The notes beneath the pieces are model-generated. The model searched no databases. It was not told where the DNA came from and worked only from the letters and a program-made list of their open reading frames with translations. 11,775 bases of DNA from Fidelibacterota bacterium (GTDB lineage: Bacteria; Fidelibacterota; Marinisomatia; Marinisomatales; UBA2128), in assembly GCA_046861645.1 (NCBI GenBank), contig JBHHUM010000066.1:1-11775 (forward strand). Direction: 5' to 3'. How positions within the stretch are numbered: position 1 is the first letter of the stretch; each line of letters begins with the position of its first letter. This document shows, piece after piece, positions 1 to 11,775 of the stretch. The translations under genes were made by a program, and so were the position numbers.

Positions 1-836
1 AAACGAATCCATGGTTTAACGGCTTGGATTGAATCGTGGAGAACGTGCACAAATTCAGTAACACCCCAACGCCACCAATCTTCCCAGGAGGGGAATTGTC
101 CTCCACCAGCACTGTCGGGAATACCGCCATTATAAGGATGCTCAATGTCGTATAAATATCTCCCCTCGGGATTTTCGCTTAATTCTTCGATTTGTTCCTG
201 GGTTATCATTCCATCAAGTGCGCGCGTTTCCCGTACCCATTTTGCATAATCAGACGATCGGGTAGAGTTAGTGTATTCATTCCAGCGGATGTAGTCAAGG
301 TGCAATCCATCGATGTCATAATTACGGATAATTTCCATAGCCACACTGACTAAATATTCTCTTACTGAGTCAAGCCCTGGTGAAAGTGCAATGTTTTCTG
401 TCATAGGATTTCCACTTCTATCTCGACAAATCCATTCAGGATGTTCTGCAGCAGGAGCGCCTTCATGCAAACTGGCACTGGCAAAGACATTAAACCAGGC
501 ATGAAGTTCAAGACCGCGGGCATGTGCTTGTTCAATAGCATAAGCCAATGGATCGTAACCCGGATCCTCATAACCAGCATAATATCCCCACGGCTCATAT
601 GAAGAATTGTAATATGCCGTTCCACTTTGACGAGCTTGGAAGAGTACAGCGTTCATATTTGCGGAACTGTGATCATCCAGAATAGCTCGTACCCTTGCCA
701 TATTTTCCTCGGGAGTATCATCTGGGTTGATGTGCTCCCAAGTGATCACCCAAGTAGAGCGGAATTCTTCGTTGCTGCTGGCAAGCAGGCTTAGATTAAA
801 AAAAAGTAATTGAATGATAATCGTTATTCGTAACAT
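1..836 (-). CDS. Family 10-like glycoside hydrolase (GHL10/DUF187, YddW/DigH-like) with signal peptide; 3'-truncated by the window edge
   Basis: Translated by hand because it is not in the ORF track. ATG at 834-836, with AGGAG 5 nt upstream, and the frame is open to position 1. Sequence: MLRITIIIQLLFFNLSLLASSNEEFRSTWVITW...MNAVLFQARQSG...SSYEPW...GYDPLAYAIEQAHARGLELHAWFN...HPEW...LSPGLDSVREYLVSVAMEIIRNYDIDGLHLDYIRW...WEDWWRWGVTEFV. These are characteristic GHL10 motifs. Confidence 0.9.
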   Translation of the reverse strand, partial: MLRITIIIQLLFFNLSLLASSNEEFRSTWVITWEHINPDDTPEENMARVRAILDDHSSANMNAVLFQARQSGTAYYNSSYEPWGYYAGYEDPGYDPLAYAIEQAHARGLELHAWFNVFASASLHEGAPAAEHPEWICRDRSGNPMTENIALSPGLDSVREYLVSVAMEIIRNYDIDGLHLDYIRWNEYTNSTRSSDYAKWVRETRALDGMITQEQIEELSENPEGRYLYDIEHPYNGGIPDSAGGGQFPSWEDWWRWGVTEFVHVLHDSIQAVKPWIR

Positions 837-907
837 TAATTCTCCTCTATTTGTTGTCATAACTATTTTGGGAATTAAAGTTAGTTTAGGATTTGATGTT
901 TACTAAT

Positions 908-950
908 CATTTCTCACAAAATAGACTTCTTTGATTTTGTGCTGGAAATG
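908..950. repeat. Imperfect inverted repeat / potential hairpin in the intergenic region
   Basis: cacaaaat (915-922) pairs with attttgtg (934-941) around an 11-nt loop. The outer catttc (908-913) pairs with gaaatg (945-950). Function is not known. Confidence 0.45.
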
Positions 951-976
951 TCTCTTATAATAATCATATTTTCAGT

Positions 977-994
977 TTAAAACACCTGTTTTAA
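977..994. promoter_or_regulatory. 18-bp palindrome, candidate transcription-factor operator upstream of the GHL10 gene
   Basis: ttaaaaca-cc-tgttttaa has perfect 8-bp arms and a 2-nt centre, in an AT-rich 197-bp intergenic gap. Confidence 0.4.
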
Positions 995-1033
995 GCAATT
1001 TGTAGGTAGTATGAAAAGGTAATAAGAATCTTT

Positions 1034-2896
1034 TCAATGGTCGTCTTCGACCAGCATCATCACTCGACCATCCATATCGGTGATTACTACTCGATTACTA
1101 TCTATTGGTGCTACAGTGTTCACTAATGCCACACCTGTTCGATGTATCCATTTCACGATACCTGTATCCGCATCAACGGCAATAACTAAACCATTTTTAG
1201 TTCCGAAAAATATGACGCCATCCTTTTCCATTGGCATGGAAGGATCAATATCATAACTGTATTTACAGGATGTAGACCAGAGAAGTTGAGGTGTTGTTGA
1301 GGATGATGAAAAGGCAAGGAGGGTATCCATAATACAACGGGAATAGATGGAACTTCCATCCTCTGAAATGCCTATAGTTTCCCGAACACTATGACGATTT
1401 GTTCGCCAGATAGTTTTTCCCGTTTCAATATCAATGGCGGTCATATAGCGATCAGGTGCAACGATAAAGACTTTATTACTCGAACCGACAGGCCAACAGG
1501 CAGCAGGAGAATATAACAAAGCTGGATGGTCATTAGACCACTTCCATGCAAGAGTCCCATCTAGGGTATTCAACGCATATAAAAATGTGTCCCATGCACC
1601 AAAAATAACCTTTTCCTTATAGATAAGAGGTTTGGTTTCTACAAAATCTCCAACGTCGCGAAATTCCCAAATTAACTGTCCTTTTTCAAGATCTATAGCT
1701 CTAAAATTACCGTCGCTCCCTCCAATGTAAACTACTCCCTTTACAATCGTTGGTGCAGCAACTACAGGTAATTCAGTTGGCATTTGCCATAATAGATTGC
1801 CATTTTTTACATCTAAACAATAAATGTTCCTATCCGACGAACCAAATACCACCTTTCCATCAGATATATCAGGTGTAGAGTAAACACTCTCTCCCGTAGC
1901 AAAACGCCAAAGTTCTTTTCCTTCAGATAATGATATCCCATAAACCACTCCACCACGGTTACCAATCACAACATACCCTTCCCCCACTGTAGGTGCAGAT
2001 GCAATAGTATAATCCGTTTCAAATGTCCATTTGACTGTTATATTAGGATATTCCTGATTTATGGAGAAATCCGGTCGTTCATAAGGTGTTGCCTCTGAAA
2101 GATAATCCTTTTGATCGAGAGAAAGGGAATGCCATGCAGATTTTGTTCTGATTCCTGTCAACCGTTCATAAAAAAACATGCTATCGTTTTGGATTTCCAC
2201 AAGTGTATAACCACCTGCTATGTCCTCCTGTCGGAGTAAAGACCTTCCCATCACACCGTGGATTCCCTCAAAATTCAAGGCTCTGTTTCTATGACCATGT
2301 CCCACCAGCACAACTTGAGTGTTATGTTGTTTTGCTCTATCCACAAGTTCATACCAGTTGTCAATAGACGAATCCAATGGGTAGTGAGTCACAAAGATCA
2401 ATGGTTGCTTTATATTCTGTATGGATGTTAGTAAAGAGTCAAGCCAGCGCAGATCTTCCGGAGTAAAATGTCCGTCTCCCATACGCATCAATGGACCTTG
2501 ATGTATCCCGATGAAGCGGTAATCCCCATATTCAAATTCAAACTTGTCGTTCCCCCATAATTGGGAAAATTTAGTAAATCCTGATGCAGACCATTTGGTA
2601 TCGTGATTCCCAGGGATTATGTAGTATGGTTTTATTAGACTATCGAGAATTCCCTTCGCTAATTCAAGCTCGCTATTTTTACCCATCTCAGTAACGTCAC
2701 CAGAAATAAGTATAAAACCAACACTTGACAAACCGTTAATGTCATGCACCGCTTGACTCAAATCCTTTGCACCTGTTGGACTCCCCACATGAATATCGCT
2801 CAGCCAGCAAAAACGGAGCGGTTGGTTTTGGGCAAGTAAAAATGACCAAGGAAAAAAGAAGATTAAGGAAACAAGTAAATGAAATAGAGATTTCAT
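1034..2896 (-). CDS. Exported calcineurin-like metallophosphoesterase fused to a PQQ/BamB-type beta-propeller
   Basis: 620 aa. Signal peptide ending LLA|Q. All five metallophosphoesterase motifs are present: SDIH, SGDVTE, PGNHD, THYP, GHGH. The C-terminal half has repeated A/CLDxxxGxxxW blades. AGGA RBS upstream. Confidence 0.9.
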   Translation of the reverse strand: MKSLFHLLVSLIFFFPWSFLLAQNQPLRFCWLSDIHVGSPTGAKDLSQAVHDINGLSSVGFILISGDVTEMGKNSELELAKGILDSLIKPYYIIPGNHDTKWSASGFTKFSQLWGNDKFEFEYGDYRFIGIHQGPLMRMGDGHFTPEDLRWLDSLLTSIQNIKQPLIFVTHYPLDSSIDNWYELVDRAKQHNTQVVLVGHGHRNRALNFEGIHGVMGRSLLRQEDIAGGYTLVEIQNDSMFFYERLTGIRTKSAWHSLSLDQKDYLSEATPYERPDFSINQEYPNITVKWTFETDYTIASAPTVGEGYVVIGNRGGVVYGISLSEGKELWRFATGESVYSTPDISDGKVVFGSSDRNIYCLDVKNGNLLWQMPTELPVVAAPTIVKGVVYIGGSDGNFRAIDLEKGQLIWEFRDVGDFVETKPLIYKEKVIFGAWDTFLYALNTLDGTLAWKWSNDHPALLYSPAACWPVGSSNKVFIVAPDRYMTAIDIETGKTIWRTNRHSVRETIGISEDGSSIYSRCIMDTLLAFSSSSTTPQLLWSTSCKYSYDIDPSMPMEKDGVIFFGTKNGLVIAVDADTGIVKWIHRTGVALVNTVAPIDSNRVVITDMDGRVMMLVEDDH

Positions 2897-2927
2897 GGCT
2901 TTTTCCTATTCTGCAGAAAACTATCTG

Positions 2928-5468
2928 CTATTTTAACAAAAGCATCTTCCTGCTTTGAGTGAATATGTTTCCATGTTGTAGAGGCTCGGCATACAGACGA
3001 TACAGGTACATCCCCGAAACCATAGGATGACCAAAGTCATCTCTCCCGTTCCAAATTACAAGTTTCTGGCCTGATGATTGAGTTTCGTTTACCAGAGTTA
3101 CTACTTCCCGTCCAATAAGATCGTATACCACAAGGTTCACTTTACTCTCTTGGGGTAAATCATATCGAATGGTTGTATTTGGGTTGAAGGGATTGGGATA
3201 ATTAGGGTAGAGGGTGAACTCACCAGGTATATATTGTGATTCTTCTGTAATATTTGTTGTCACAATTTCTGCTAAGTGAAGATCATCGAAATAGAGAGTA
3301 CCAAAGGGTGGATTACCGGGGAAGTAGGTTAGTTGAATACTGTCGATTCTTAGAGTGCCGTCGAGGTTTCCATCTCCGATCCAAGTACCAGTACCATCAC
3401 TCATCATATCCCAGGAGATCAACTTCCAGCCTATCCAGTCAATCGTATACCAGGGGCTTACCTCGTGATTTGCTGCATCCGCATTGGGAACTTTGTCATC
3501 CACACAAAACCTGAACTGATTTCCGCTACCGTCGCCGAAAATATAAATCTGTAGTTTATTATCACTGTCAAACCATACTTCTCTTGGTGTACCACCAGAT
3601 AAATAGACTCTTATCAGCCAATTATCAACATTAGTATCCCAACCATAATCTACTTGAAGGGATTGGGTGCTTCCAGTCAGTAGATTCACGATGTTGCTGT
3701 TGACACTTCTTCCAGTACTATCGGTAATAATTCCCGTAGTACTACCACTCATTTGTGGAGCCCACCAGTTAGAAATTACTCCAGACTCATAATCATCAAT
3801 GGTAGTTATTTCGAAGGTGTTTTCAGTTGTCACGAAAGGGAATGCCTTCCACTGGAAATTCTCATTTCCAAAGAGATCGCGGAGACCAGGGGATATTCTG
3901 GAAACATAAATTTCATCAGCAAATAAAAGATCTGATGGGAAATAACAAAGGACGCTTTGATCATTCATGACATAATGCTCGAGAATCCCCTGCACTTCTG
4001 TGTAATCACTATATCTCTCTAATTTAAAAAGCGTATCAGAAATAGATGTGGGATCCAATTCTTCATCGTAGATCATATTGACAATGGGATTTCTTTCTAC
4101 ATCTTGGGAATTAATAGGAGGATAGATCGACAGTAATTCTGGAGGGGACATATCTGGAGGACCGGTTCGAAAACTTAAGATGAAGTCATCCCCTCCTATA
4201 CCATCTCCGTTTCCATCTAAAAAGTGACCATATTGATCTTGAGCATCGCCAGTAATAGTCAATACATAGTTTGTCTCGAATTGCAAGGTGTCAGCATTAA
4301 ATATCAATTTCTTACTATCATCTGACCAGGCAAGAACGCCACCCATTTCTGGTTCTGTTACTAAAGTGGTTTCTACGGAAACTTCAGCCATAGGGCGACT
4401 GAACTCTATCATTATAGGGTCCCAAGCTGGAGTGTTTGTATCTCCTTCAGCAGGTAAAGTGTTGACTATTGTAGGGGGAGTATTGGATAGCAATTGAACA
4501 TCTTTAAAAGTAAAGAAAGTGTCCAGGATTGCTACTTGCAGAGTTTCTGGGTAATAGTTAGCAGCCTCGATTGTCATTTGGAGTGTATCATTGGAGAGGC
4601 CGTCAAAATAGTAAAATCCATTATGGAGGAGGTCTGGATCACTCGTGTAATTATGAAATAATGATTCAAAACTATCAGTAGAATAAGTTTTTTCTTGTAG
4701 AGAAACAACGGCACCATTAATAGGAATATTGGATTCCACATCAGAGATAATCCCGGTACAGGTTCCCACAAAGGGACGTTCGATATTATGATATTTCAGT
4801 AATGACCAGTAGAAAGTCATAGCCTCGAGTTTTTTCCATTCCGAATTCATGTTGAGTTGATTTTGAGTAGGATTAGTATGAAAACCAGCTTCACTCAGTT
4901 CTGACGGCATATTGGTCATTCTATTGACCCAAAGATAAGGACCACCAGTTTGTTGGCACCAGTCACTCCAGGTATAATAACTACAATCTCCCCAGGAACC
5001 ACGAGTAGTGGTTCTCATTCCCCGGGTTAGTATGTCTGTTATGATATCACTCATAGCCTCACCGCCCACAGGCGGATCGGGAGTACCATTATATAGTTCT
5101 CCCCATAAAAGTAAAGTACTGTTGTAATTTGGTGGACCAGCATCACTATGAATGGAATGAAACCAGGCAGTTCCAATCGAATTGGCATAGTCTGTGCGTT
5201 GACTTAAGGTGACATATTCTTCATCATTCGTACGAGTAATGTAAACTGTATCGATGTCAGTTTCTTCCAGCAAAAAGTCAAGAAGGAATAACCCCACTCT
5301 GAGATTTTTCTCTGCTTCAGAATAACCATAGATTCCCATATTCTCTGTTTGACTATGTCCTGGATCTAAACAGATATTCCACCCTTCTAAACCGACGACC
5401 TGAGCTAAACAATGTGATAAGAGTAATGTGAAGCATATAGGATAGTAAATAAGGAACTTCAATTTCAT
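2928..5468 (-). CDS. Secreted N-acetylmuramoyl-L-alanine amidase (Amidase_3) with a carboxypeptidase-regulatory-like domain, two Ig-like (Big_5-type) domains, a putative carbohydrate-binding beta-sandwich and a C-terminal T9SS-type A/FlgD-Ig sorting domain
   Basis: Signal peptide CLA|Q. Zn-amidase motifs LDPGH, SEAEKNL, TRxxD..LSQR..AN, SIHSDA, LSEAGFHTN. Ig repeats begin TPPTIVNTLP and SPPELLSIYP. The C-terminus reads LYPNYPNPFNPNTTIRYDLP...GMYLYRL...RKMLLLK. ATG at 5468 is preferred (AGGGA 7 nt upstream); GTG at 5471 is the alternative start. Confidence 0.9.
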   Translation of the reverse strand: MKLKFLIYYPICFTLLLSHCLAQVVGLEGWNICLDPGHSQTENMGIYGYSEAEKNLRVGLFLLDFLLEETDIDTVYITRTNDEEYVTLSQRTDYANSIGTAWFHSIHSDAGPPNYNSTLLLWGELYNGTPDPPVGGEAMSDIITDILTRGMRTTTRGSWGDCSYYTWSDWCQQTGGPYLWVNRMTNMPSELSEAGFHTNPTQNQLNMNSEWKKLEAMTFYWSLLKYHNIERPFVGTCTGIISDVESNIPINGAVVSLQEKTYSTDSFESLFHNYTSDPDLLHNGFYYFDGLSNDTLQMTIEAANYYPETLQVAILDTFFTFKDVQLLSNTPPTIVNTLPAEGDTNTPAWDPIMIEFSRPMAEVSVETTLVTEPEMGGVLAWSDDSKKLIFNADTLQFETNYVLTITGDAQDQYGHFLDGNGDGIGGDDFILSFRTGPPDMSPPELLSIYPPINSQDVERNPIVNMIYDEELDPTSISDTLFKLERYSDYTEVQGILEHYVMNDQSVLCYFPSDLLFADEIYVSRISPGLRDLFGNENFQWKAFPFVTTENTFEITTIDDYESGVISNWWAPQMSGSTTGIITDSTGRSVNSNIVNLLTGSTQSLQVDYGWDTNVDNWLIRVYLSGGTPREVWFDSDNKLQIYIFGDGSGNQFRFCVDDKVPNADAANHEVSPWYTIDWIGWKLISWDMMSDGTGTWIGDGNLDGTLRIDSIQLTYFPGNPPFGTLYFDDLHLAEIVTTNITEESQYIPGEFTLYPNYPNPFNPNTTIRYDLPQESKVNLVVYDLIGREVVTLVNETQSSGQKLVIWNGRDDFGHPMVSGMYLYRLYAEPLQHGNIFTQSRKMLLLK

Positions 5469-5483
5469 CACATTTTCCCTGGT

Positions 5484-6431
5484 TTAACGTACCTCTTGTA
5501 CGAAAATCTGTCCGTTGTATGAGTCAAAGGCTATCCATTTTCCATCAGATGACCAGTTGGGATGCATGGCAATGGTCTCAGAGTTGTTGGTGATGTTTAC
5601 TTTACCACTACCATCAATATTAATTACAAAGATGTCTGAGGAGAGGTAATTATGACCATCATCGGTAGTAATCATGTAAGTGATCTTATCGCTTTCTGGG
5701 TTCCATGAAGGGGCATGTCCTACTCCCAAGTCAACAAGGTTATCTCCTTTTATGGAGGATACCCATAGATGTCCTCCCATAACCTCGTAGGCTATCATGG
5801 TATTATCAGGAGAAATGACAAGATTTATTATTCTTCCTGGTGGAGAGTTAATGTATGAATCTATTTTAGAGGTGACCTTTCTACCCACAATCCGACTTTT
5901 CATAATAAACACGAGTTTTTCCTTACCGAAGTCATTTAGTTTGTCTACTCTTTCTCCCGTTGTACTGAAAATCCTGAAATCATCGGTGTTACTCAAGTAA
6001 ATGAATCGATCATCCTTCGTCCACTTAGGTATACCATAAAGATCAGGACTAAAGTCACTGATCAGTTGCATATTTCCAGAGTTTACATCATAAAAGACAA
6101 TGGCATTGAGTCGACGAATATTTTCAAACCGAGAGATTCGAGTAGCTATTTTATTTCCTTTGTTAGACCACTCTAAACCGAATCCTGCAGTAGGGTCATT
6201 AGTAAGATTAATGAGATCTCCACTGGGAAAATCTATCAGATAAATACCAGTATATTTGTTCCCGGTTGCGGCAATTATTGTACCATCAGGGGACCACTTA
6301 GGGGCAATGAGGAAATATTCAGTGCTGGTTAATGCACGAGGTGTGCCAACTGGTGTAATAGCAGGAGATTGCCCAATTGAAAATGAGATTAGAGTACAAA
6401 TTGTTGTGATTGTAAGAATTAATCGTCGCAT
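5484..6431 (-). CDS. Exported TolB-like (PD40/WD40-like repeat) beta-propeller protein
   Basis: 315 aa. Signal peptide followed by repeated PxWSPDG-type blades: PKWSPDG, EWSNKG, PKWTKDD, ISPDN, PSWNPES, PNWSSDG. It lacks the TolB N-terminal domain and tol-pal context, so it is not called tolB. Confidence 0.85.
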   Translation of the reverse strand: MRRLILTITTICTLISFSIGQSPAITPVGTPRALTSTEYFLIAPKWSPDGTIIAATGNKYTGIYLIDFPSGDLINLTNDPTAGFGLEWSNKGNKIATRISRFENIRRLNAIVFYDVNSGNMQLISDFSPDLYGIPKWTKDDRFIYLSNTDDFRIFSTTGERVDKLNDFGKEKLVFIMKSRIVGRKVTSKIDSYINSPPGRIINLVISPDNTMIAYEVMGGHLWVSSIKGDNLVDLGVGHAPSWNPESDKITYMITTDDGHNYLSSDIFVINIDGSGKVNITNNSETIAMHPNWSSDGKWIAFDSYNGQIFVQEVR

Positions 6432-6765
6432 TCTTTCTGATGTAGTCCCTTAATTCGTCTTTCCCTCATTTTCAATAAACAAAGTATAGGTTCAGATATT
6501 CGCTTATCGTGTTTTCTAAGGAATACTGACATATTTCTCTTGAAATTAAGGGAAACTTTTCTCCTTTTCAATGATTGTGATAAAGCATAATTCTCATCCT
6601 GAAATGGGAATTTACTTCCACATAAGATTCGCTACAAATGGTTCAATATTGTAGATAGTTTTCCGGGCTTTTTCTCTATTGTGAGTATCCAAGTGGTTTA
6701 ATAATACATTAGATTCTCTATAACTGGAAGGTAAATTCTCAGACAGACTATTTTCCAATTCGTCA

Positions 6766-6811
6766 TTGCGGTAAGGGGCGAGTGTACCTTAGATTTCGTA
6801 TCACCAAAGGT
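6766..6811 (+). promoter_or_regulatory. Candidate sigma70-type promoter and RBS for nagB
   Basis: TTGCGG (6766-6771), 18-nt spacer, TAGATT (6790-6795), then AAAGGT (6806-6811) 7 nt before the ATG at 6819. It lies in the 387-bp divergent intergenic region. The consensus match is only moderate. Confidence 0.3.
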
Positions 6812-6818
6812 ATGGGTT

Positions 6819-9146
6819 ATGTTTACTTCTTCCGTTGAAAAGCGATTTCATGAAAGATCGGGTTACGCTCTACCAGAATCACGTATTCCCTATATCACAG
6901 TATGTAGTTTTCCAGAGCTGGGACTTCTGACGGCGTTGAGGTTTTTGGAATGGTCTTCAGAGAATCCTGAAGGAGTAGTAAGCCTACCAACGGGAAAAAC
7001 TCCTGAGTACTTTATTAAGTGGACAAACTATTTGCTTTTAGAGTGGCAGTCTCCAGATCAGGAGAAATTCAGAAAGAATTTCGGGTTGGGAATAAAGAAT
7101 AAACCCGATCTGAGAGGGCTACATTTTGTGCAAATTGATGAATTTTACCCTATTAATCCTGTCCAACACAATAGTTTCAACTATTATGTAAATAAATATT
7201 ATGTGGAAGGGTTTGGTCTTGATCAAAATCGGGCACAGTTGATTAACTGTCAGAAGATTCCACGGCCTCAAGGTTTACCCTTTGAACAAATTTTTCCTAA
7301 CGACAAAGTAGATCTCACATTGAGAACCCGAGAATGCCGCAGCAGGGAAGAGGAGTTACAGCGGGATGCAGTATTGATGGTTGACGAATGGTGTGCGGAA
7401 TATGAGGAGAGGATTCGTCAGAAGGGTGGCATTGGTTTTTTCCTGGGGGGGATTGGTCCTGATGGACATATTGCTTTTAATGTAAGGGGATCGGACCATA
7501 ATTCTACTACCCGGTTGACTGATACTAATTTTGAGACGCAGGCTGCAGCCGCTACTGATCTGGGAGGAATTGAAATATCAAGGAGTAAGTTGGTAATTAC
7601 GATTGGATTAGCGACAATAACTTTTAATCCAGAAGTTATTGCTATCATTATGGCAGCGGGAGAAGCCAAGGCAGGTATTGTGGCTAACTCTGTGGAAAGT
7701 AAACCATCCAACCTTTTCCCAGCTACAGCGTTGCACAAACTTACTAATAGCAGATTCTATCTGACGCAAGGTGCTGCTTCCCGGATCAGTACAAGCATGC
7801 AAAGATATTACCAGAGCAGTAAATGGTCAGGTGAGAAAACCGAGCGTGCCATAATTGACCTTTGCAAGAGGGAAAATATTTTTGGTCACCGGTTAGAAGT
7901 GGAGGACCTTCAGAAAGACAAAGTATGTGACATGATTCCCAATAAGGATGGGAGTACAGTGAGTTTTGTAATTAAGTCTCTTCAAAAGAAGATCCAGCGC
8001 GGTTTAACAAATCTTACAGGAGAAGTTTTTCTGCATACAGGTCCCCATCATGATGATATTATGTTGGGCTATCTACCATTCATTGTTCATCTGATACGAT
8101 CTCCCAAGAATACACATCATTTTTCCATTTTTACTTCTGGTTTTACTTCAGTTACTAATAACTACCTGTTACGCACTCTCCGTGCAACCAAGACATTACT
8201 TATTCAAAACCGTATTGAGATGATTATGTATCCTGATTTCTTTGAATCAGGATATCGTTTGAAATGGGATAAAGACATTTTCCACTATTTGGATCGCGTT
8301 GCCGCCCGAAACCGGGAAGGGCAAACCCGTGGTCTCAGCCATAGAGTTATCAGGGTATTAGTTGAGATTTATGACATTAAGGATCGCACAGATCTATTGA
8401 GTAAAATTGATAACCTGATTACTTATCTTGAAGCCTGCTATGATGGTGAGAAAAATAGTTCTGATGTACAGCATCTAAAGGGAAGATTACGAGAGTTCGA
8501 GGAAGAACTGGTATGGGCTCATTATGGTGTGCAGGTAGAAAATGTCCACCATTTACGGTTAGGGTTTTACTCGGGAGATATTTTCAATAAACCTCCTGAC
8601 CGCTCCCGGGACGTGGCTCCTGTACTTGATCACCTTCGTACAATTAAACCGACCATCCTGACTCTGGCTCTTGATCCAGAAGGAAGTGGTCCTGATACCC
8701 ATTATAAAGCATTACAGACTCTTGCAGAAGCAGTGAGAGTTTGGCGACGAGATGAAGATTTATCTAATTTACGCATCTGGGGTTATAGGAACGTCTGGTA
8801 TCGCTTCCATCCTGCTGAAGCAGATATCATTGTACCGGTATCTCTCAATTCTATGTCAGTTTTGAGGGAGACATTCTTAGATTGCTATGTTAGTCAAAGA
8901 GAAGCGTCTTTCCCAAGTCACGAATTAGATGGCCCATTTTGTGAACTGGTTCAGAAAATATGGGTGGAACAGCATCAGCTGTTGGAGTTAGTTTTGGGAA
9001 GGGATTATTGGTACCAAAACAAGCATCCCCGTCTGCGAGCAACCCATGGGGTCCTTTATTTACGGGAAATGGATGTCGATACCTTCCTGGGTGAGGCGAG
9101 ACGTCTGGAAGAATCTATGGAGAGACAAATCGAATACTCTTTATGA
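6819..9146 (+). CDS. nagB: Long-form glucosamine-6-phosphate deaminase (NagB) fused to a C-terminal PIG-L/LmbE-like deacetylase domain
   Basis: 775 aa, no signal peptide. NagB motifs: SLPTGKTPE, QIDEFYP, FLGGIGPDGHIAFN..GS..STTR, ITIGLATI, AAGEAKA, PATAL. C-terminal PIG-L-like motifs: GPHHDDIMLG, LRLGFY, DPEGSGPDTH, IWGYRNVW, YVSQ. Confidence 0.9.
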   Translation: MFTSSVEKRFHERSGYALPESRIPYITVCSFPELGLLTALRFLEWSSENPEGVVSLPTGKTPEYFIKWTNYLLLEWQSPDQEKFRKNFGLGIKNKPDLRGLHFVQIDEFYPINPVQHNSFNYYVNKYYVEGFGLDQNRAQLINCQKIPRPQGLPFEQIFPNDKVDLTLRTRECRSREEELQRDAVLMVDEWCAEYEERIRQKGGIGFFLGGIGPDGHIAFNVRGSDHNSTTRLTDTNFETQAAAATDLGGIEISRSKLVITIGLATITFNPEVIAIIMAAGEAKAGIVANSVESKPSNLFPATALHKLTNSRFYLTQGAASRISTSMQRYYQSSKWSGEKTERAIIDLCKRENIFGHRLEVEDLQKDKVCDMIPNKDGSTVSFVIKSLQKKIQRGLTNLTGEVFLHTGPHHDDIMLGYLPFIVHLIRSPKNTHHFSIFTSGFTSVTNNYLLRTLRATKTLLIQNRIEMIMYPDFFESGYRLKWDKDIFHYLDRVAARNREGQTRGLSHRVIRVLVEIYDIKDRTDLLSKIDNLITYLEACYDGEKNSSDVQHLKGRLREFEEELVWAHYGVQVENVHHLRLGFYSGDIFNKPPDRSRDVAPVLDHLRTIKPTILTLALDPEGSGPDTHYKALQTLAEAVRVWRRDEDLSNLRIWGYRNVWYRFHPAEADIIVPVSLNSMSVLRETFLDCYVSQREASFPSHELDGPFCELVQKIWVEQHQLLELVLGRDYWYQNKHPRLRATHGVLYLREMDVDTFLGEARRLEESMERQIEYSL

Positions 9147-9167
9147 CTTTAAATTTAGGCTGATTTC

Positions 9168-9336
9168 TAACCTGTTTAATTCATCAGCCGCCAAGTTCGC
9201 GAAGTTTCACGAAGAGAAAACAAAAAAGTCCACAGAAATCCTGTTGGAAGATAATTTTCAATCATAATGCTCATATCTGCTATATTATCTATAATTTGCG
9301 AATCTTTGCGTTCTTCGTGACGAATAATCCAGGCTA
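9168..9336. repeat. Long imperfect inverted-repeat element (MITE/REP-like, possible bidirectional terminator) between convergent genes
   Basis: Outer arm 9168-9186 (taacctgtttaattcatca) matches the reverse complement of 9318-9336 (tagcctggattattcgtca) at 14/19. Inside each arm are three CGCRAAG/CACGAAG-like heptads with identical 7-2-7-3-7 spacing, in inverted orientation. Confidence 0.6.
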
Positions 9337-9388
9337 AATGTTCTCCCGATAAAATATCGTTAATTTATTCTGGATAGGAGAAAAAATC

Positions 9389-11775
9389 CTATTTGAGTAG
9401 GGTGAATTTCTTGGAAATATTTCTCCTCTTTGTCTTAAGTTTGGCTATATAAGTTCCAGTGGCAGCTCTATTCCCTGACGATGTTATCCCATTCCAAGTC
9501 AAGGTTATCTTACTACCAGAGGATAGTTGAGTCGGAAAAGGTATTTCAGAAATTTTGCGTCCAAGTAGATCAAGAATCTGAAGAGAAGCTGTGAGAGGGA
9601 AGGGTTCTGATGGTAGCTGAATTTCAATTTTCACATGAAGGTTAGCTGGATTAGGATAAATAGCCGTAATTGCTAATGTCATGGGTTGTGGATCAGGTTG
9701 GGTTTCAATATTTAGATTAGAGTAAAAATAGTTTAGTACAGAGGACATGACACTTTTCCTGGTTTCTTCTGGATAGATTGTTTCGAATGGAATGGCCAGA
9801 TGAACTAATCCACTGGGTACCGAACTGCTTCCGAATGATCCAATATATTCTATACCAGCCCCTCCCTGAGTGGAATAGTCCACTCCGCTATATTTGAGAT
9901 TTACAGAGGACCCACCAGTAGGTTTGATACCGTCTGGCCAATCCACATCATACGTGCCGTGTGATCCGTTGTCAAATGAGATGTTGGTAAGTTCCGTAAA
10001 AATAGTCCCACTTGTACCGTAGGCTTCATAGGTTCCTTGGTGACCTCCCGCGGCATCGGATACATAGACAGACTTCAGGTAGTCGGTATAGAAGGCGTAA
10101 TCGGTACTATTGCCCTGGGCCACAAGATCGTAGCCGATTTCCGACCCGGAGACGAAAAGTGCCCGGCCTGCCTCGAGGAAGTCCATCACCTCTGCCTGTT
10201 CCACCGCCGTGAAGGAACTGGTGGCTGTCCCCTCTTCGCCCAGAATCCAGTCCACGATAAAGTAATTGTTCATATCGATTAGTCCATTTTCGATCACCTC
10301 GTTGGCACAGGCATCGAAGGCATAGCCAGCGTTTTGAATAGCGGGTCCGTGGCGCCGGATGAAATCAAAAGTGTTATTAGTACCACTTACTCGGTCAAAA
10401 CCATTTACTACGAGTATTGACACTTCGTCTGTAGTGGGAATCACACCCAGCACTTCTGTCATAGGACTTTCCCCGTGCTCGTTTACTGCTGATACCTGGA
10501 TGTAGTACAGTTCTCCCTCCGTCAGGTTGGTCATGACGACTGGTTCGTTTGGAGAGGTTATGAGCAGGGTTGGATCGGAATCAGTGAACCAGCGGTAGAT
10601 GTTAAACTCGCTGGCACCGCTTGGAGTAGAGAAGCTGATCTGCACCGAGCCGTTGCCTGCATTGGTTATACTCAGATTGGTAGGTGCAGTGGGTGGTGAA
10701 GTGGCTCCAAAGTGGTCTGCCAGAGCACCCCACAATTCCGGTTCTGTTCCGTCGTATCCAAGAGCCCAAATGCCAATTCCTAGAAGGTCTTCTTCGATAA
10801 CCAGCTCGTACTTGAGAGAAAGAGATAGACTGTCGTCATACCATCCCTGATGCCATTGGTTGCTGTCGTCCTGGTAATGATACCACGGAGTCTGTGATTC
10901 ATCGTCCCAAAGTAGACCGTAACTCTCCGCCAGAGCAATGGCTTCGGAGTAGAACTTGGCATCGCCGCTCCCGGTCGTGGATGCTCCTGCACTGCCGGAG
11001 GTAGTTGGCCATTCATACCCGTAGTACGGCAGACCCAGGATAATCTTGTCCCGTTCGTTACCGGTCTTGGTCAGGTAGTCGTCTACGGTCCAGGTGATGT
11101 TATAAGTCCCCCAGCCGGTGAGAGGAGAGACAGGTCCTGCTGTGGAACTGCTGCTCCAGTGGTAACCGTAGCCCATGATCATTAAGCCGTCGCAGGCATT
11201 GGCGAGAGCATCATAGTTAAAGGCGTTGGACCAGTCCACAGCCGGTGTCGCAATGGTTACCTGTGAGGCCGGGTTTGCCTCGTGGAAAGCTGAAGTGAGA
11301 TCAGTCATGAATGTGGTAAGATTGTCACGCTGACTGGAGGGAACACCCTCAAAGTCGATATTTACACCGTCAGCCCCGGCAGCGTTTACCTCTGATAGGA
11401 GATTATTGATTAGCGTCTGCCGGTTGGAGGCGCTGTTTAAAAGCTGAGAGATTTGATCACTATTAAACAGGATAACCACCAGTGAAACTTCTGTTCCATA
11501 AGAATGAGCCAGGTTAATGAGGCTTGTCACCGGCCAGCCATGGTGGTCGATGATACTTCCATACCCATTGGTTTCCACACCGAAGTAGGCAATGGTGGAA
11601 ATTAGATTGAAATTATAATTCTGCCAGGCGCTTCCCATCCAGTAGGGATGATAGCCAAAAATCTCTCGAGAGGGGGCTGTCAGTCGTTTATGGAGTGGTA
11701 TAAAGTAATTATCACTTTTGGCCTTTATATCTTGGAATAACTTCTTGTAAAACTCATGCTGCTCCTGATGGATAC
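9389..11775 (-). CDS. Secreted GH18 glycoside hydrolase + fibronectin type III + uncharacterised alpha/beta domain + C-terminal T9SS-type A/FlgD-Ig sorting domain; 5'-truncated by the window edge
   Basis: The frame stays open upstream of the track's Met at 11638 (IHQEQHEFYKKLF...REIFGYHPYW-MGS), so the start is outside the window. GH18 motifs: ADGVNIDFE, IMGY, KIILGLPYYG, WDDESQTPW, GIGIWALG. FN3: PPTAPTNLS...YYIQVSAVNEHGES. C-terminus: AIYPNPAN...GTYIAKL...KKFTLLK. Confidence 0.9.
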   Translation of the reverse strand, partial: IHQEQHEFYKKLFQDIKAKSDNYFIPLHKRLTAPSREIFGYHPYWMGSAWQNYNFNLISTIAYFGVETNGYGSIIDHHGWPVTSLINLAHSYGTEVSLVVILFNSDQISQLLNSASNRQTLINNLLSEVNAAGADGVNIDFEGVPSSQRDNLTTFMTDLTSAFHEANPASQVTIATPAVDWSNAFNYDALANACDGLMIMGYGYHWSSSSTAGPVSPLTGWGTYNITWTVDDYLTKTGNERDKIILGLPYYGYEWPTTSGSAGASTTGSGDAKFYSEAIALAESYGLLWDDESQTPWYHYQDDSNQWHQGWYDDSLSLSLKYELVIEEDLLGIGIWALGYDGTEPELWGALADHFGATSPPTAPTNLSITNAGNGSVQISFSTPSGASEFNIYRWFTDSDPTLLITSPNEPVVMTNLTEGELYYIQVSAVNEHGESPMTEVLGVIPTTDEVSILVVNGFDRVSGTNNTFDFIRRHGPAIQNAGYAFDACANEVIENGLIDMNNYFIVDWILGEEGTATSSFTAVEQAEVMDFLEAGRALFVSGSEIGYDLVAQGNSTDYAFYTDYLKSVYVSDAAGGHQGTYEAYGTSGTIFTELTNISFDNGSHGTYDVDWPDGIKPTGGSSVNLKYSGVDYSTQGGAGIEYIGSFGSSSVPSGLVHLAIPFETIYPEETRKSVMSSVLNYFYSNLNIETQPDPQPMTLAITAIYPNPANLHVKIEIQLPSEPFPLTASLQILDLLGRKISEIPFPTQLSSGSKITLTWNGITSSGNRAATGTYIAKLKTKRRNISKKFTLLK

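Follow-up and report, generated by a model that had tools for sequence, protein, structure and literature searches.

A candidate exogenous-peptidoglycan harvesting locus of a Fidelibacterota (SAR406) bacterium

Here we analyse an 11,775-bp stretch of DNA (the window), the whole of contig JBHHUM010000066.1 (C42) of a Fidelibacterota (SAR406) metagenome-assembled genome (MAG; 2.51 Mb, 184 contigs, 43% guanine plus cytosine (GC), 94% completeness). In agreement with this placement, the labelled loci nearest to its ORFs belong to Candidatus Neomarinimicrobiota (52-56% mean identity), and one of its proteins has close homologs designated as Marinimicrobia or Fidelibacterota proteins. From its gene content and conserved surroundings, we consider it likely to be the middle of a locus that harvests exogenous peptidoglycan, with the released amino sugars probably burned via a fused cytoplasmic enzyme. 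Peptidoglycan is a large, partly persistent pool of marine organic carbon and nitrogen, and SAR406/Fidelibacterota are abundant in the dark ocean. The observations behind our reading are a parts list of wall-active enzymes, the tags that mark them for export, the conservation of their neighbourhoods, and an accessory rather than universal distribution among relatives. Domains were called with Pfam and NCBIfam profiles against curated cut-offs, and signal-like N-termini were judged by eye from the translations. Comparisons drew on 40 relatives of the same order (41 genomes when the source is counted) and on a phylum sample of 301 genomes including the source; G numbers denote genomes (G000 is the source, all others are relatives), L numbers fetched loci, and C numbers contigs. 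Calling of open reading frames (ORFs) showed six large ORFs occupying the window, as follows (T9SS, type IX secretion system; aa, amino acids; GH, glycoside hydrolase):

3..860, minus strand: N-terminal 286 aa of a GHL10 hydrolase, comprising a signal-like segment and the start of the TIM barrel (PF02638)
1034..2896, minus strand: metallophosphoesterase with a PQQ/BamB-like beta-propeller, 620 aa (PF00149, PF13360)
2928..5471, minus strand: T9SS amidase, 847 aa (Amidase_3, TIGR04183)
5484..6431, minus strand: PD40 (TolB-like) beta-propeller, 315 aa (PD40)
6432..6818, no strand: divergent intergenic region, 387 bp, presumed promoter region for the TolB-like/amidase unit and for the fusion (ORF coordinates)
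6819..9146, plus strand: cytoplasmic NagB-like/LmbE(PIG-L)-like fusion, 775 aa (NCBIfam, predicted fold)
9147..9388, no strand: convergent intergenic spacer, 242 bp, holding a repeat of about 190 bp (repeat copies, read depth)
9389..11773, minus strand: GH18, fn3, Y domain and T9SS sorting domain, frame open at the contig end (PF00704, TIGR04183)

An initial annotation, made from the letters and translations of the window, had assigned domains to these six proteins and export signals to all except the fusion; Pfam and NCBIfam reproduced all six domain calls, with the fusion confirmed by its predicted fold, and the export signals held as well. Signal-like hydrophobic N-termini are visible on the GHL10, phosphoesterase, amidase and TolB-like proteins, the signal peptide of GH18 lies on a neighbouring contig (C140), and the fusion begins without such a segment. 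Spacing of the minus-strand genes (12 bp between the TolB-like gene and the amidase, 31 bp between the amidase and the phosphoesterase, 173 bp before GHL10) suggests that propeller, amidase and phosphoesterase form one transcription unit.

The exported amidase and its partners

In the amidase, Amidase_3 (PF01520) scored 58.7 bits (cut-off 27) and reached 62.4 bits when the genome was searched; the two Big_5 domains gave 74.9 bits and the sorting profile TIGR04183 gave 33.8 bits (cut-off 23). The protein is arranged in the order signal, Amidase_3, CarboxypepD_reg-like domain, two Big_5 domains, a module that we call X (residues ~548-752) and a type A sorting domain. PF18962 reached 24.1 bits in the amidase and 25.4 bits in GH18, both under the Pfam cut-off of 27. 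In 13 orthologs, residues H39, E52, H108 and E194 do not vary, and their counterparts in the solved Amidase_3 enzyme 4rn7 are the GH, E, SIH and E-x-GF positions; we take the first three to be metal ligands and E194 to be the catalytic Glu.

The GHL10 fragment in the window matched PF02638 at 107.3 bits (cut-off 27.9), and the full ortholog from G006 did so at 128 bits. The complete protein measures ~1037 aa, the remainder (G000:C111:24181-26436) supplying two Big_5 domains, an X module and a T9SS sorting domain, whose Por_Secre_tail score of 19.9 bits stays under the Pfam cut-off of 27. The sole PDB match of the full G006 ortholog was Cwp19 of Clostridioides difficile (5oq2, E 2.5e-27), and a further member of the family, DigH, is described as a denuded-glycan hydrolase (PMC12288456). 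For the protein described here we predict the same preference, purely from its adjacency to the amidase. The C-terminal halves of amidase and GHL10 are homologous (37-42% identity), and the X module common to both gave a sub-threshold match to CBM_11 (E 0.016). By predicted structure, X recurs in protein clusters with Amidase_3, Amidase_2, GHL10 or SpoIID domains, and it could be a new peptidoglycan-binding module.

The third member of this module is the TolB-like protein, which by its profile scores is a PD40 propeller (34.5 bits) and not TolB: it scored 56.3 bits against the 343 required by TIGR02800, and its 315 aa comprise the propeller only, behind a signal-like N-terminus and with no sorting domain. 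It accompanies the amidase as an obligate, dedicated partner: among the 40 relatives, 11 carry full-length amidase orthologs, at 12 places in total, and the TolB-like gene lies directly upstream in all 12, often overlapping. The same order, TolB-like then amidase, is kept in four Ignavibacteria-type loci (L025-L028, labelled Ignavibacteriaceae, Ignavibacterium and Ignavibacteriae, plus one further MAG); these came from a wider locus search with the amidase alignment, in which 5 of 77 loci were real relatives and the others mostly sorting-domain matches. In G027 a second amidase paralog (Amidase_3, CarboxypepD_reg, a Y domain of the GH18 type and a sorting domain) stands beside the first with a TolB-like gene of its own (L019:5752-8046, 8040-8960), which suggests that the two genes duplicate together. 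Next after this paralog comes a C92 permuted-papain amidase gene.

We tentatively entertain the idea, which we hold to be possible yet doubtful, that the PD40 propeller is a dedicated periplasmic guard and, together with the shared Big_5-X tail, constitutes a new export-and-targeting cassette for wall-degrading enzymes in the Fibrobacteres-Chlorobi-Bacteroidetes (FCB) group. If so, the guard would bind the folded amidase as it crosses the periplasm to the T9SS pore and keep it off the producer's wall, and the propeller would be an immunity- or chaperone-like answer to the difficulty of moving a murein hydrolase out through a compartment that itself contains murein.

Around this pair, the neighbourhood is conserved in a way that bears out the expectation of synteny. 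Full-length GHL10 stands alongside the amidase in 9 of the 12 same-order loci, homologs of a 718/708-aa receptor partner in 9 and TonB-dependent receptor homologs in 7, and NamZ is present at the amidase locus in L011, L012 and L015. The G030 locus strings together a receptor, the TolB-like gene, the amidase, AnmK, the NagB/LmbE fusion, an LD-carboxypeptidase and a PBP4-type carboxypeptidase, and the L022 locus holds AnmK, LdcA, PBP4 and the fusion. In G029 a sodium:solute symporter family (SSF) gene 76% identical to one on C111, the contig adjoining the window on the left, sits directly upstream of the TolB-like/amidase pair (L013:4005-5801), thus linking the C111-type carrier to the module.

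Evolutionarily, the window amidase behaves as an accessory gene, being found in 70 of the 301 sampled phylum genomes (source included) and in 38 of 104 genera. A separate amidase on C31 (497 aa, Amidase_3 at 181 bits, without a sorting domain) is present as a single copy in each of the 41 order genomes, including streamlined ones of 1 Mb, against 12 of 41 for the window type. The C31 enzyme is therefore likely to be the division amidase and the window enzyme an accessory, which makes a division role for the latter unlikely, as had been proposed from its domain architecture.

The GH18 hydrolase and the NagB/LmbE fusion

GH18 was identified by PF00704 at 127.4 bits (cut-off 29.6) and by TIGR04183 at 29.5 bits (cut-off 23), with its domains in the order GH18, fn3, Y domain (GATase1-like) and type A sorting domain, and with its first ~25 aa on C140. 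The best PDB matches were 4wiw (E 9e-28), YdhD (3cz8, 1.2e-25), YaaH (4s3k, 1.2e-18) and SleL (4s3j, 2.2e-17), and the first chitinase in that ranking (2.3e-15) came behind YdhD, YaaH and SleL. Opposite DGVVIDFE of 4wiw the protein reads DGVNIDFE, retaining the catalytic D-x-E, with Asn for the middle Asp of DxxDxDxE. By these matches the enzyme is classed with the spore-cortex-lytic (YdhD/YaaH/SleL) type, nearer to peptidoglycan-lytic GH18 proteins than to chitinases. The Y domain had been a candidate wall-binding module; its model, of moderate confidence (predicted local distance difference test (pLDDT) 72.6), has a fold resembling the GH42 trimerisation domain and IFT52-N, and we rejected wall binding for a GATase1-like, oligomerisation-type fold.

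Orthologs of GH18 (57-89% identity) occur in 19 of the 40 relatives, including all three same-genus genomes, and their surroundings define an operon of their own. Of 12 loci fetched from relatives, 9 have NamZ directly after GH18, and at least 9 have a lysA-like gene ahead of it. In L102 and L103, NamZ after GH18 is succeeded by peptidases of families S13 and S66 and a pair of Gate-domain genes, with NagB, a GntR/UTRA regulator and the fusion within 7-15 kb. The onward row in G039 and G027 comprises a PBP4-type S13 peptidase, LdcA (S66), an SpmAB-like Gate pair, canonical NagB, DUF4954, the GntR/UTRA regulator, acetate kinase, phosphotransacetylase and the NagB/LmbE fusion. Acetate kinase and phosphotransacetylase beside this row would suit the disposal of acetyl groups. 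Further GH18 loci add a MurQ-like gene, AnmK, a GH3-beta-lactamase fusion, amino-acid carriers and an Na:alanine symporter. In the source genome a lysA-like gene of the Orn/DAP/Arg-decarboxylase family lies directly upstream of GH18 on C140, such that the first two genes of the operon are spread across C140 and the right-hand end of the window; there, GH18 is without a following NamZ and instead converges on the fusion across the 242-bp spacer. We conclude that GH18 belongs to a separate lysA-GH18-NamZ operon, apart from the module of TolB-like gene, amidase, GHL10, NamZ and receptor.

A side observation concerns the row between canonical NagB and the fusion, where a 660-aa hexapeptide-repeat protein (DUF4954/DUF6819) and the GntR/UTRA regulator are found (L102:5430-8186, L103:10146-12896); none of these, nor the adjacent acetate kinase and phosphotransacetylase, was found in the source genome at E 1e-10.

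The fusion consists of a NagB-like half (residues ~1-395) and an LmbE(PIG-L)-like half (~400-775), and it stays under every curated score cut-off. NCBIfam gave PRK02122 'deaminase-like' at 193 bits (cut-off 384) and TIGR00502 at 80.5 (cut-off 236.9), and Pfam on the whole protein returned nothing at E 0.01. A PDB search matched the N-terminal half to NagB over residues 188-333, and a profile of five orthologs reached no LmbE chain. The AlphaFold2 model (pLDDT 82.2) matched glucosamine-6-phosphate (GlcN-6-P) deaminases by Foldseek at TMt 0.71-0.77, and its C-terminal half matched LmbE/PIG-L-type deacetylases (2ixd, TMt 0.63; 5bmo, 0.65; 8bgo, 0.54). The modelled fold is thus of NagB plus LmbE/PIG-L type, yet the protein cannot be filed as either by curated scores. 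The motifs PHHDD (409-413) and GPDTH (DTH 626-628) are invariant in 27 fusion sequences, as is the Asp of IDEF among the aligned orthologs; PHHDD and DTH are presumably the zinc motifs, and we assume the NagB active-site roles for the DGH, FNEP and IDEF positions.

From a metabolic perspective, the fusion is the only match to canonical NagB in a BLAST search of the source genome, and no NagA (TIGR00221) exceeded the cut-off there (best 31 bits against 225). Since NagA is nearly missing from the order (over cut-off in 1 of 41 genomes, compared with 22 of 41 for the fusion), the fusion is likely a combined N-acetylglucosamine-6-phosphate (GlcNAc-6-P) deacetylase and GlcN-6-P deaminase that would replace NagA. 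It is also commoner than the amidase (21 against 11 of the 40 relatives). One ortholog (G011:C9:30689-32998) showed a single in-frame TAA in the genome search and an intact 775-aa frame by ORF calling.

A proposed wall-harvesting route and its rivals

The initial annotation observed that no transporter, kinase, murQ or regulator lies in the window, which is correct for the window itself; a search of the flanks and the genome located namZ, two TonB-dependent receptors and an SSF symporter adjoining on C111, and murQ-like, anmK and nagZ genes elsewhere. On C111, NamZ (DUF1343, PF07075/PF20732) is directly downstream of GHL10. Two receptor sets lie further along: the first combines a TonB-dependent receptor of 1007 aa with a 718-aa protein and an NHL protein that bears a sorting domain, and the second includes PorV-like and TIG proteins. 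The contig also encodes the SSF symporter and a class A beta-lactamase-like gene; the receptors carry Plug and CarboxypepD_reg domains. Elsewhere, a MurQ-like SIS protein adjoins AnmK on C155. On C150 are an ATG22-type carrier of the major facilitator superfamily (MFS), two SSF carriers, a second NamZ, a GH3-beta-lactamase fusion (NagZ-type), alanine racemase and a BadF/BcrA-type ATPase. A Gate pair, another receptor set, PBP4 and LdcA lie on C115. SprA (609.8 bits, cut-off 200) and PorU (684.8 bits, cut-off 420) both exceed their thresholds in the source genome, so that machinery for the sorting domains is present; the GldM model matched neither this genome nor the control genomes and is uninformative.

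Two further features of these neighbourhoods deserve mention. A conserved protein of 704-732 aa always follows the TonB-dependent receptor (C111:10785-12911, 19069-21225; 9 of 12 loci) and may be a functional analogue of SusD in the phylum; no SusD-family pairing was found at the C111 receptors, and a true SusC/SusD pair was seen only in G011. The class A beta-lactamase-like gene (PF13354) stands beside an SSF symporter or NamZ/MurQ (C111:6429-7412, L106:10551-11429, L107:7634-8542) and might process peptides in the pathway instead of conferring resistance.

We posit the following route, in which the activities, substrates and order of action are predictions from family and context; the known relatives of these enzymes all act on peptidoglycan. 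At or beyond the cell surface, the amidase would strip stem peptides, GHL10 (of the DigH/Cwp19 family) would cut the denuded glycan, and the SleL-like GH18 would cut the bonds between N-acetylglucosamine (GlcNAc) and N-acetylmuramic acid (MurNAc). Fragments would then enter through the neighbouring TonB-dependent receptors, periplasmic NamZ and GH3 NagZ would free MurNAc and GlcNAc, and SSF or MFS carriers would import both. In the cytoplasm, AnmK or a kinase, followed by MurQ, would yield GlcNAc-6-P, and the fusion would deacetylate and deaminate this to fructose-6-P in place of NagA. LdcA, PBP4, alanine racemase and the lysA-like decarboxylase would meanwhile salvage the peptides.

Several observations weigh against this route, or against the window as its unit. 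The amidase is absent from all three same-genus genomes, so that the trait is patchy as well as accessory, and the phosphoesterase-propeller is absent from all 12 same-order amidase loci, occurring in 2 of the 40 relatives elsewhere in the genome. GH18 is linked to the rest of the window only through a repeat at which assemblies break. The fusion is usually unlinked to the amidase and is found in 11 of the 29 relatives that have no amidase, for which reason it may belong to amino-sugar use in general or to own-wall recycling. When its halves were searched separately, both remained under Pfam cut-offs (Glucosamine_iso 16.8 bits against 27; PF02585, PIG-L, 16.6 bits against 28.2, E 0.011), and it reads FNVR where NagB has FNEP, with Val in place of Glu, although DGHIAFN is conserved. 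The 708- and 718-aa receptor partners match no Pfam family, and import of wall fragments through these receptors is for that reason a guess. Finally, AnmK, LdcA, MurQ and NagZ are also classic genes of own-wall recycling. The reading of the initial annotation is supported with corrections: the phosphoesterase is not a conserved member in the order, GH18 belongs to a separate operon, and the fusion is usually unlinked to the amidase. Its claim that foreign walls serve as food is supported by context as far as exogenous peptidoglycan goes, with necromass indistinguishable here from living prey.

An alternative that we regard as unlikely is that the locus is a bacteriolytic weapon, in which the exported amidase, GHL10 and GH18 lyse living neighbours, the TolB-like protein is a periplasmic immunity factor or guard, and nutrition is a by-product. 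T9SS sorting domains on three wall hydrolases fit such a role, as does a non-exported partner that stays closely tied to the amidase at each locus and is duplicated with the G027 paralog, a layout typical of effector-immunity pairs. The locus is nevertheless built like one for nutrient uptake, with TonB receptors, symporters, NamZ and catabolic genes together; Gram-negative prey would be protected by an outer membrane, and pore-forming or delivery components were not seen. Considerably less probable in our view is own-wall maintenance, in which the genes would separate daughter cells and recycle endogenous muropeptides in the manner of AmiA/B/C, DigH, NagZ, AnmK and MurQ in Escherichia coli. 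Amidase_3 and GHL10 are indeed the septal pair of that organism (PMC12288456), and AnmK, MurQ, LdcA and NagZ are in the genome. But the T9SS domains send amidase, GHL10 and GH18 past the outer membrane and away from the own wall, the universal amidase without a sorting domain (41 of 41, against 12 of 41) is a separate gene, 29 of the 40 relatives naturally do without the window type, and TonB receptors beside these genes would be needless for own fragments.

Use of chitin or other GlcNAc polymers, with GH18 as a chitinase, the fusion processing chitin sugars, and amidase and GHL10 as unrelated neighbours, seems to us similarly improbable. GH18 is the classic chitinase family, the fold match 8bgo of the C-terminal domain of the fusion is an archaeal diacetylchitobiose deacetylase, and G011 has SusC/SusD, GH20 and CBM9 genes between fusion and GH18. 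Against this, the top four solved relatives of GH18 are 4wiw, itself a GH18 protein, and three spore-peptidoglycan hydrolases, with chitinases weaker; its conserved neighbours are NamZ, DD- and LD-carboxypeptidases and the lysA-like gene, and Pfam scans revealed no chitin-binding module. There remains the very improbable explanation that the genes are chance neighbours in a T9SS-rich genome or joined in a chimeric contig. The amidase query drew 98 first-look candidates in the source genome (the weaker matches listed were nearly all to the sorting-domain end only), the repeat at 9147-9388 breaks independent assemblies, and the phosphoesterase-propeller is not linked in the order. This explanation is largely refuted by conserved synteny, as the gene order is repeated in different families of the order and in Ignavibacteria-labelled genomes; in addition, read depth is equal on both sides of the repeat in four runs of one sample, and the high GC of GH18 is common to its orthologs. 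The harvesting of exogenous peptidoglycan remains our preferred reading.

Known systems, contig joins and accessory features

Among described pathways, the closest in content is that of Bacillus subtilis, in which, as presented in PMC8054146, NamZ, NagZ and AmiE together digest peptidoglycan, their genes lie in the operon murQ-murR-murP-amiE-nagZ-namZ, and MurQ feeds MurNAc-6-phosphate into GlcNAc-6-P catabolism. The exported amidase, the hexosaminidases including NamZ (GH171) and MurQ of that operon all have counterparts in the source genome. Unlike B. subtilis, the host here is Gram-negative and its genes are spread over several loci, the outer enzymes (Amidase_3, GHL10, GH18) are large multidomain T9SS cargo that is likely endo-acting rather than exo-acting as AmiE and NagZ are in that account, uptake is predicted to use TonB receptors with SSF/MFS carriers instead of the phosphotransferase system, a NagB/LmbE fusion takes the place of NagA, and the amidase has a TolB-like partner gene. 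Tannerella forsythia, like the present host a Gram-negative of the FCB group with NamZ-type exo-muramidases and cytoplasmic MurNAc catabolism, is described as unable to make MurNAc and as scavenging exogenous peptidoglycan fragments via NamZ1/NamZ2, MurK and MurQ (10.1101/2021.12.02.470905, PMC10465942). For the present host no sign of such an auxotrophy emerged, though no search aimed at it was made.

The likeness to AmiA/B/C and DigH (YddW) of E. coli lies in the order of action, Amidase_3 denuding and GHL10 then cutting the denuded strands (PMC12288456). According to that source the E. coli enzymes are periplasmic and targeted to the divisome, whereas the genes described here are accessory, encode export tails (Big_5-X-sorting domain) and have nutrient receptors nearby. 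As in the SusC/SusD polysaccharide utilization loci of Bacteroidota, a CarboxypepD_reg TonB receptor and a partner gene stand beside exported glycan hydrolases; unlike in those loci, the partner (708-732 aa) matches no SusD or Pfam family, and the cargo travels by T9SS and not as Sus-type lipoproteins. E. coli amidases are activated by LytM factors. To our knowledge, the T9SS amidase/GHL10/TolB-like module is not part of the described Tannerella pathway.

For SAR406 itself, the text of 10.1101/095471 proposed peptidoglycan degradation from GH23, GH103 and CBM50 only, which are housekeeping-type families, and Table S1 of that work could list some of the genes treated here. A literature search, with subscription journals and supplements outside its reach, found no published account of a T9SS amidase/GHL10/NamZ/receptor locus, nor of a NagB/LmbE fusion as a substitute for NagA. 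The locus would provide a concrete enzyme set for wall harvesting, with a surface amidase, two glycan cutters, receptors, NamZ and catabolism; the role of the amidase-coupled propeller, the X module as a possible wall-binding domain and a possible order-wide replacement of NagA by NagB/LmbE are its points of interest.

Regarding assembly, the window can be placed between two other contigs of the source genome. At the left end, the window's part of GHL10 corresponds to residues 24-280 of the G006 ortholog (1039 aa; 76% identity); residues 289-1039 are matched, at 74% identity, by a frame that lies at the right end of C111 and is open at its N-terminus, so that the halves fit one ortholog with about 8 aa missing between C111 and the window. 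At the right end, a 25-aa signal peptide terminating in ...THKSI lies at the end of C140, the GH18 frame of the window begins IHQEQHEF, and the same-genus orthologs in G002 and G003 read ...HKSIHQEQHE across this junction. Logan assemblies were available for four runs, all of a single sample that may be the one behind the MAG; their contigs cover positions 1-9196 of the window and then extend 27.4 kb beyond its left end (C111 measures 26.4 kb), and others extend 1.2-8.2 kb beyond its right end. Together, the C111 halves, the C140 signal peptide and the Logan contigs give the map C111, C42, C140 reversed.

Within the window, the spacer at 9147-9388 holds the repeat of about 190 bp, with further copies at G000:C165:13102-13286 (95% over 186 nt) and on C53 and C173. 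Its read depth is 3-4 times that of its flanks, and all four Logan assemblies break there, so the adjacency of GH18 and the fusion comes from the MAG assembler alone; the equal depth of the two flanks in each run is consistent with it. An Rfam search of the window including the repeat matched no family, and the repeat could be a small mobile or repetitive extragenic palindromic (REP)-like element. The GH18 gene has a GC content of 48-50%, against ~40% for the other window genes, which might mark a chimeric contig or recent transfer; this was rejected, as orthologs (L111, L114 and others) likewise exceed their own loci (in G002, for example, 0.50 against 0.42).

The remaining gene, the phosphoesterase-propeller, whose enzyme part is of the calcineurin type, matched PF00149 at 55.4 bits and PF13360 at 140 bits, and its phosphoesterase part weakly resembles the GpdQ-type phosphohydrolase 2dxl (E 7.5e-7). 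In G027 and G039 its neighbours are unrelated. A random insertion was considered and then softened, because two Ignavibacteria-labelled loci keep the gene after TolB-like and amidase, at 48-49% identity. It is best described as an optional accessory, only loosely linked to the module, and one may speculate that it removes phosphodiester-linked wall polymers.

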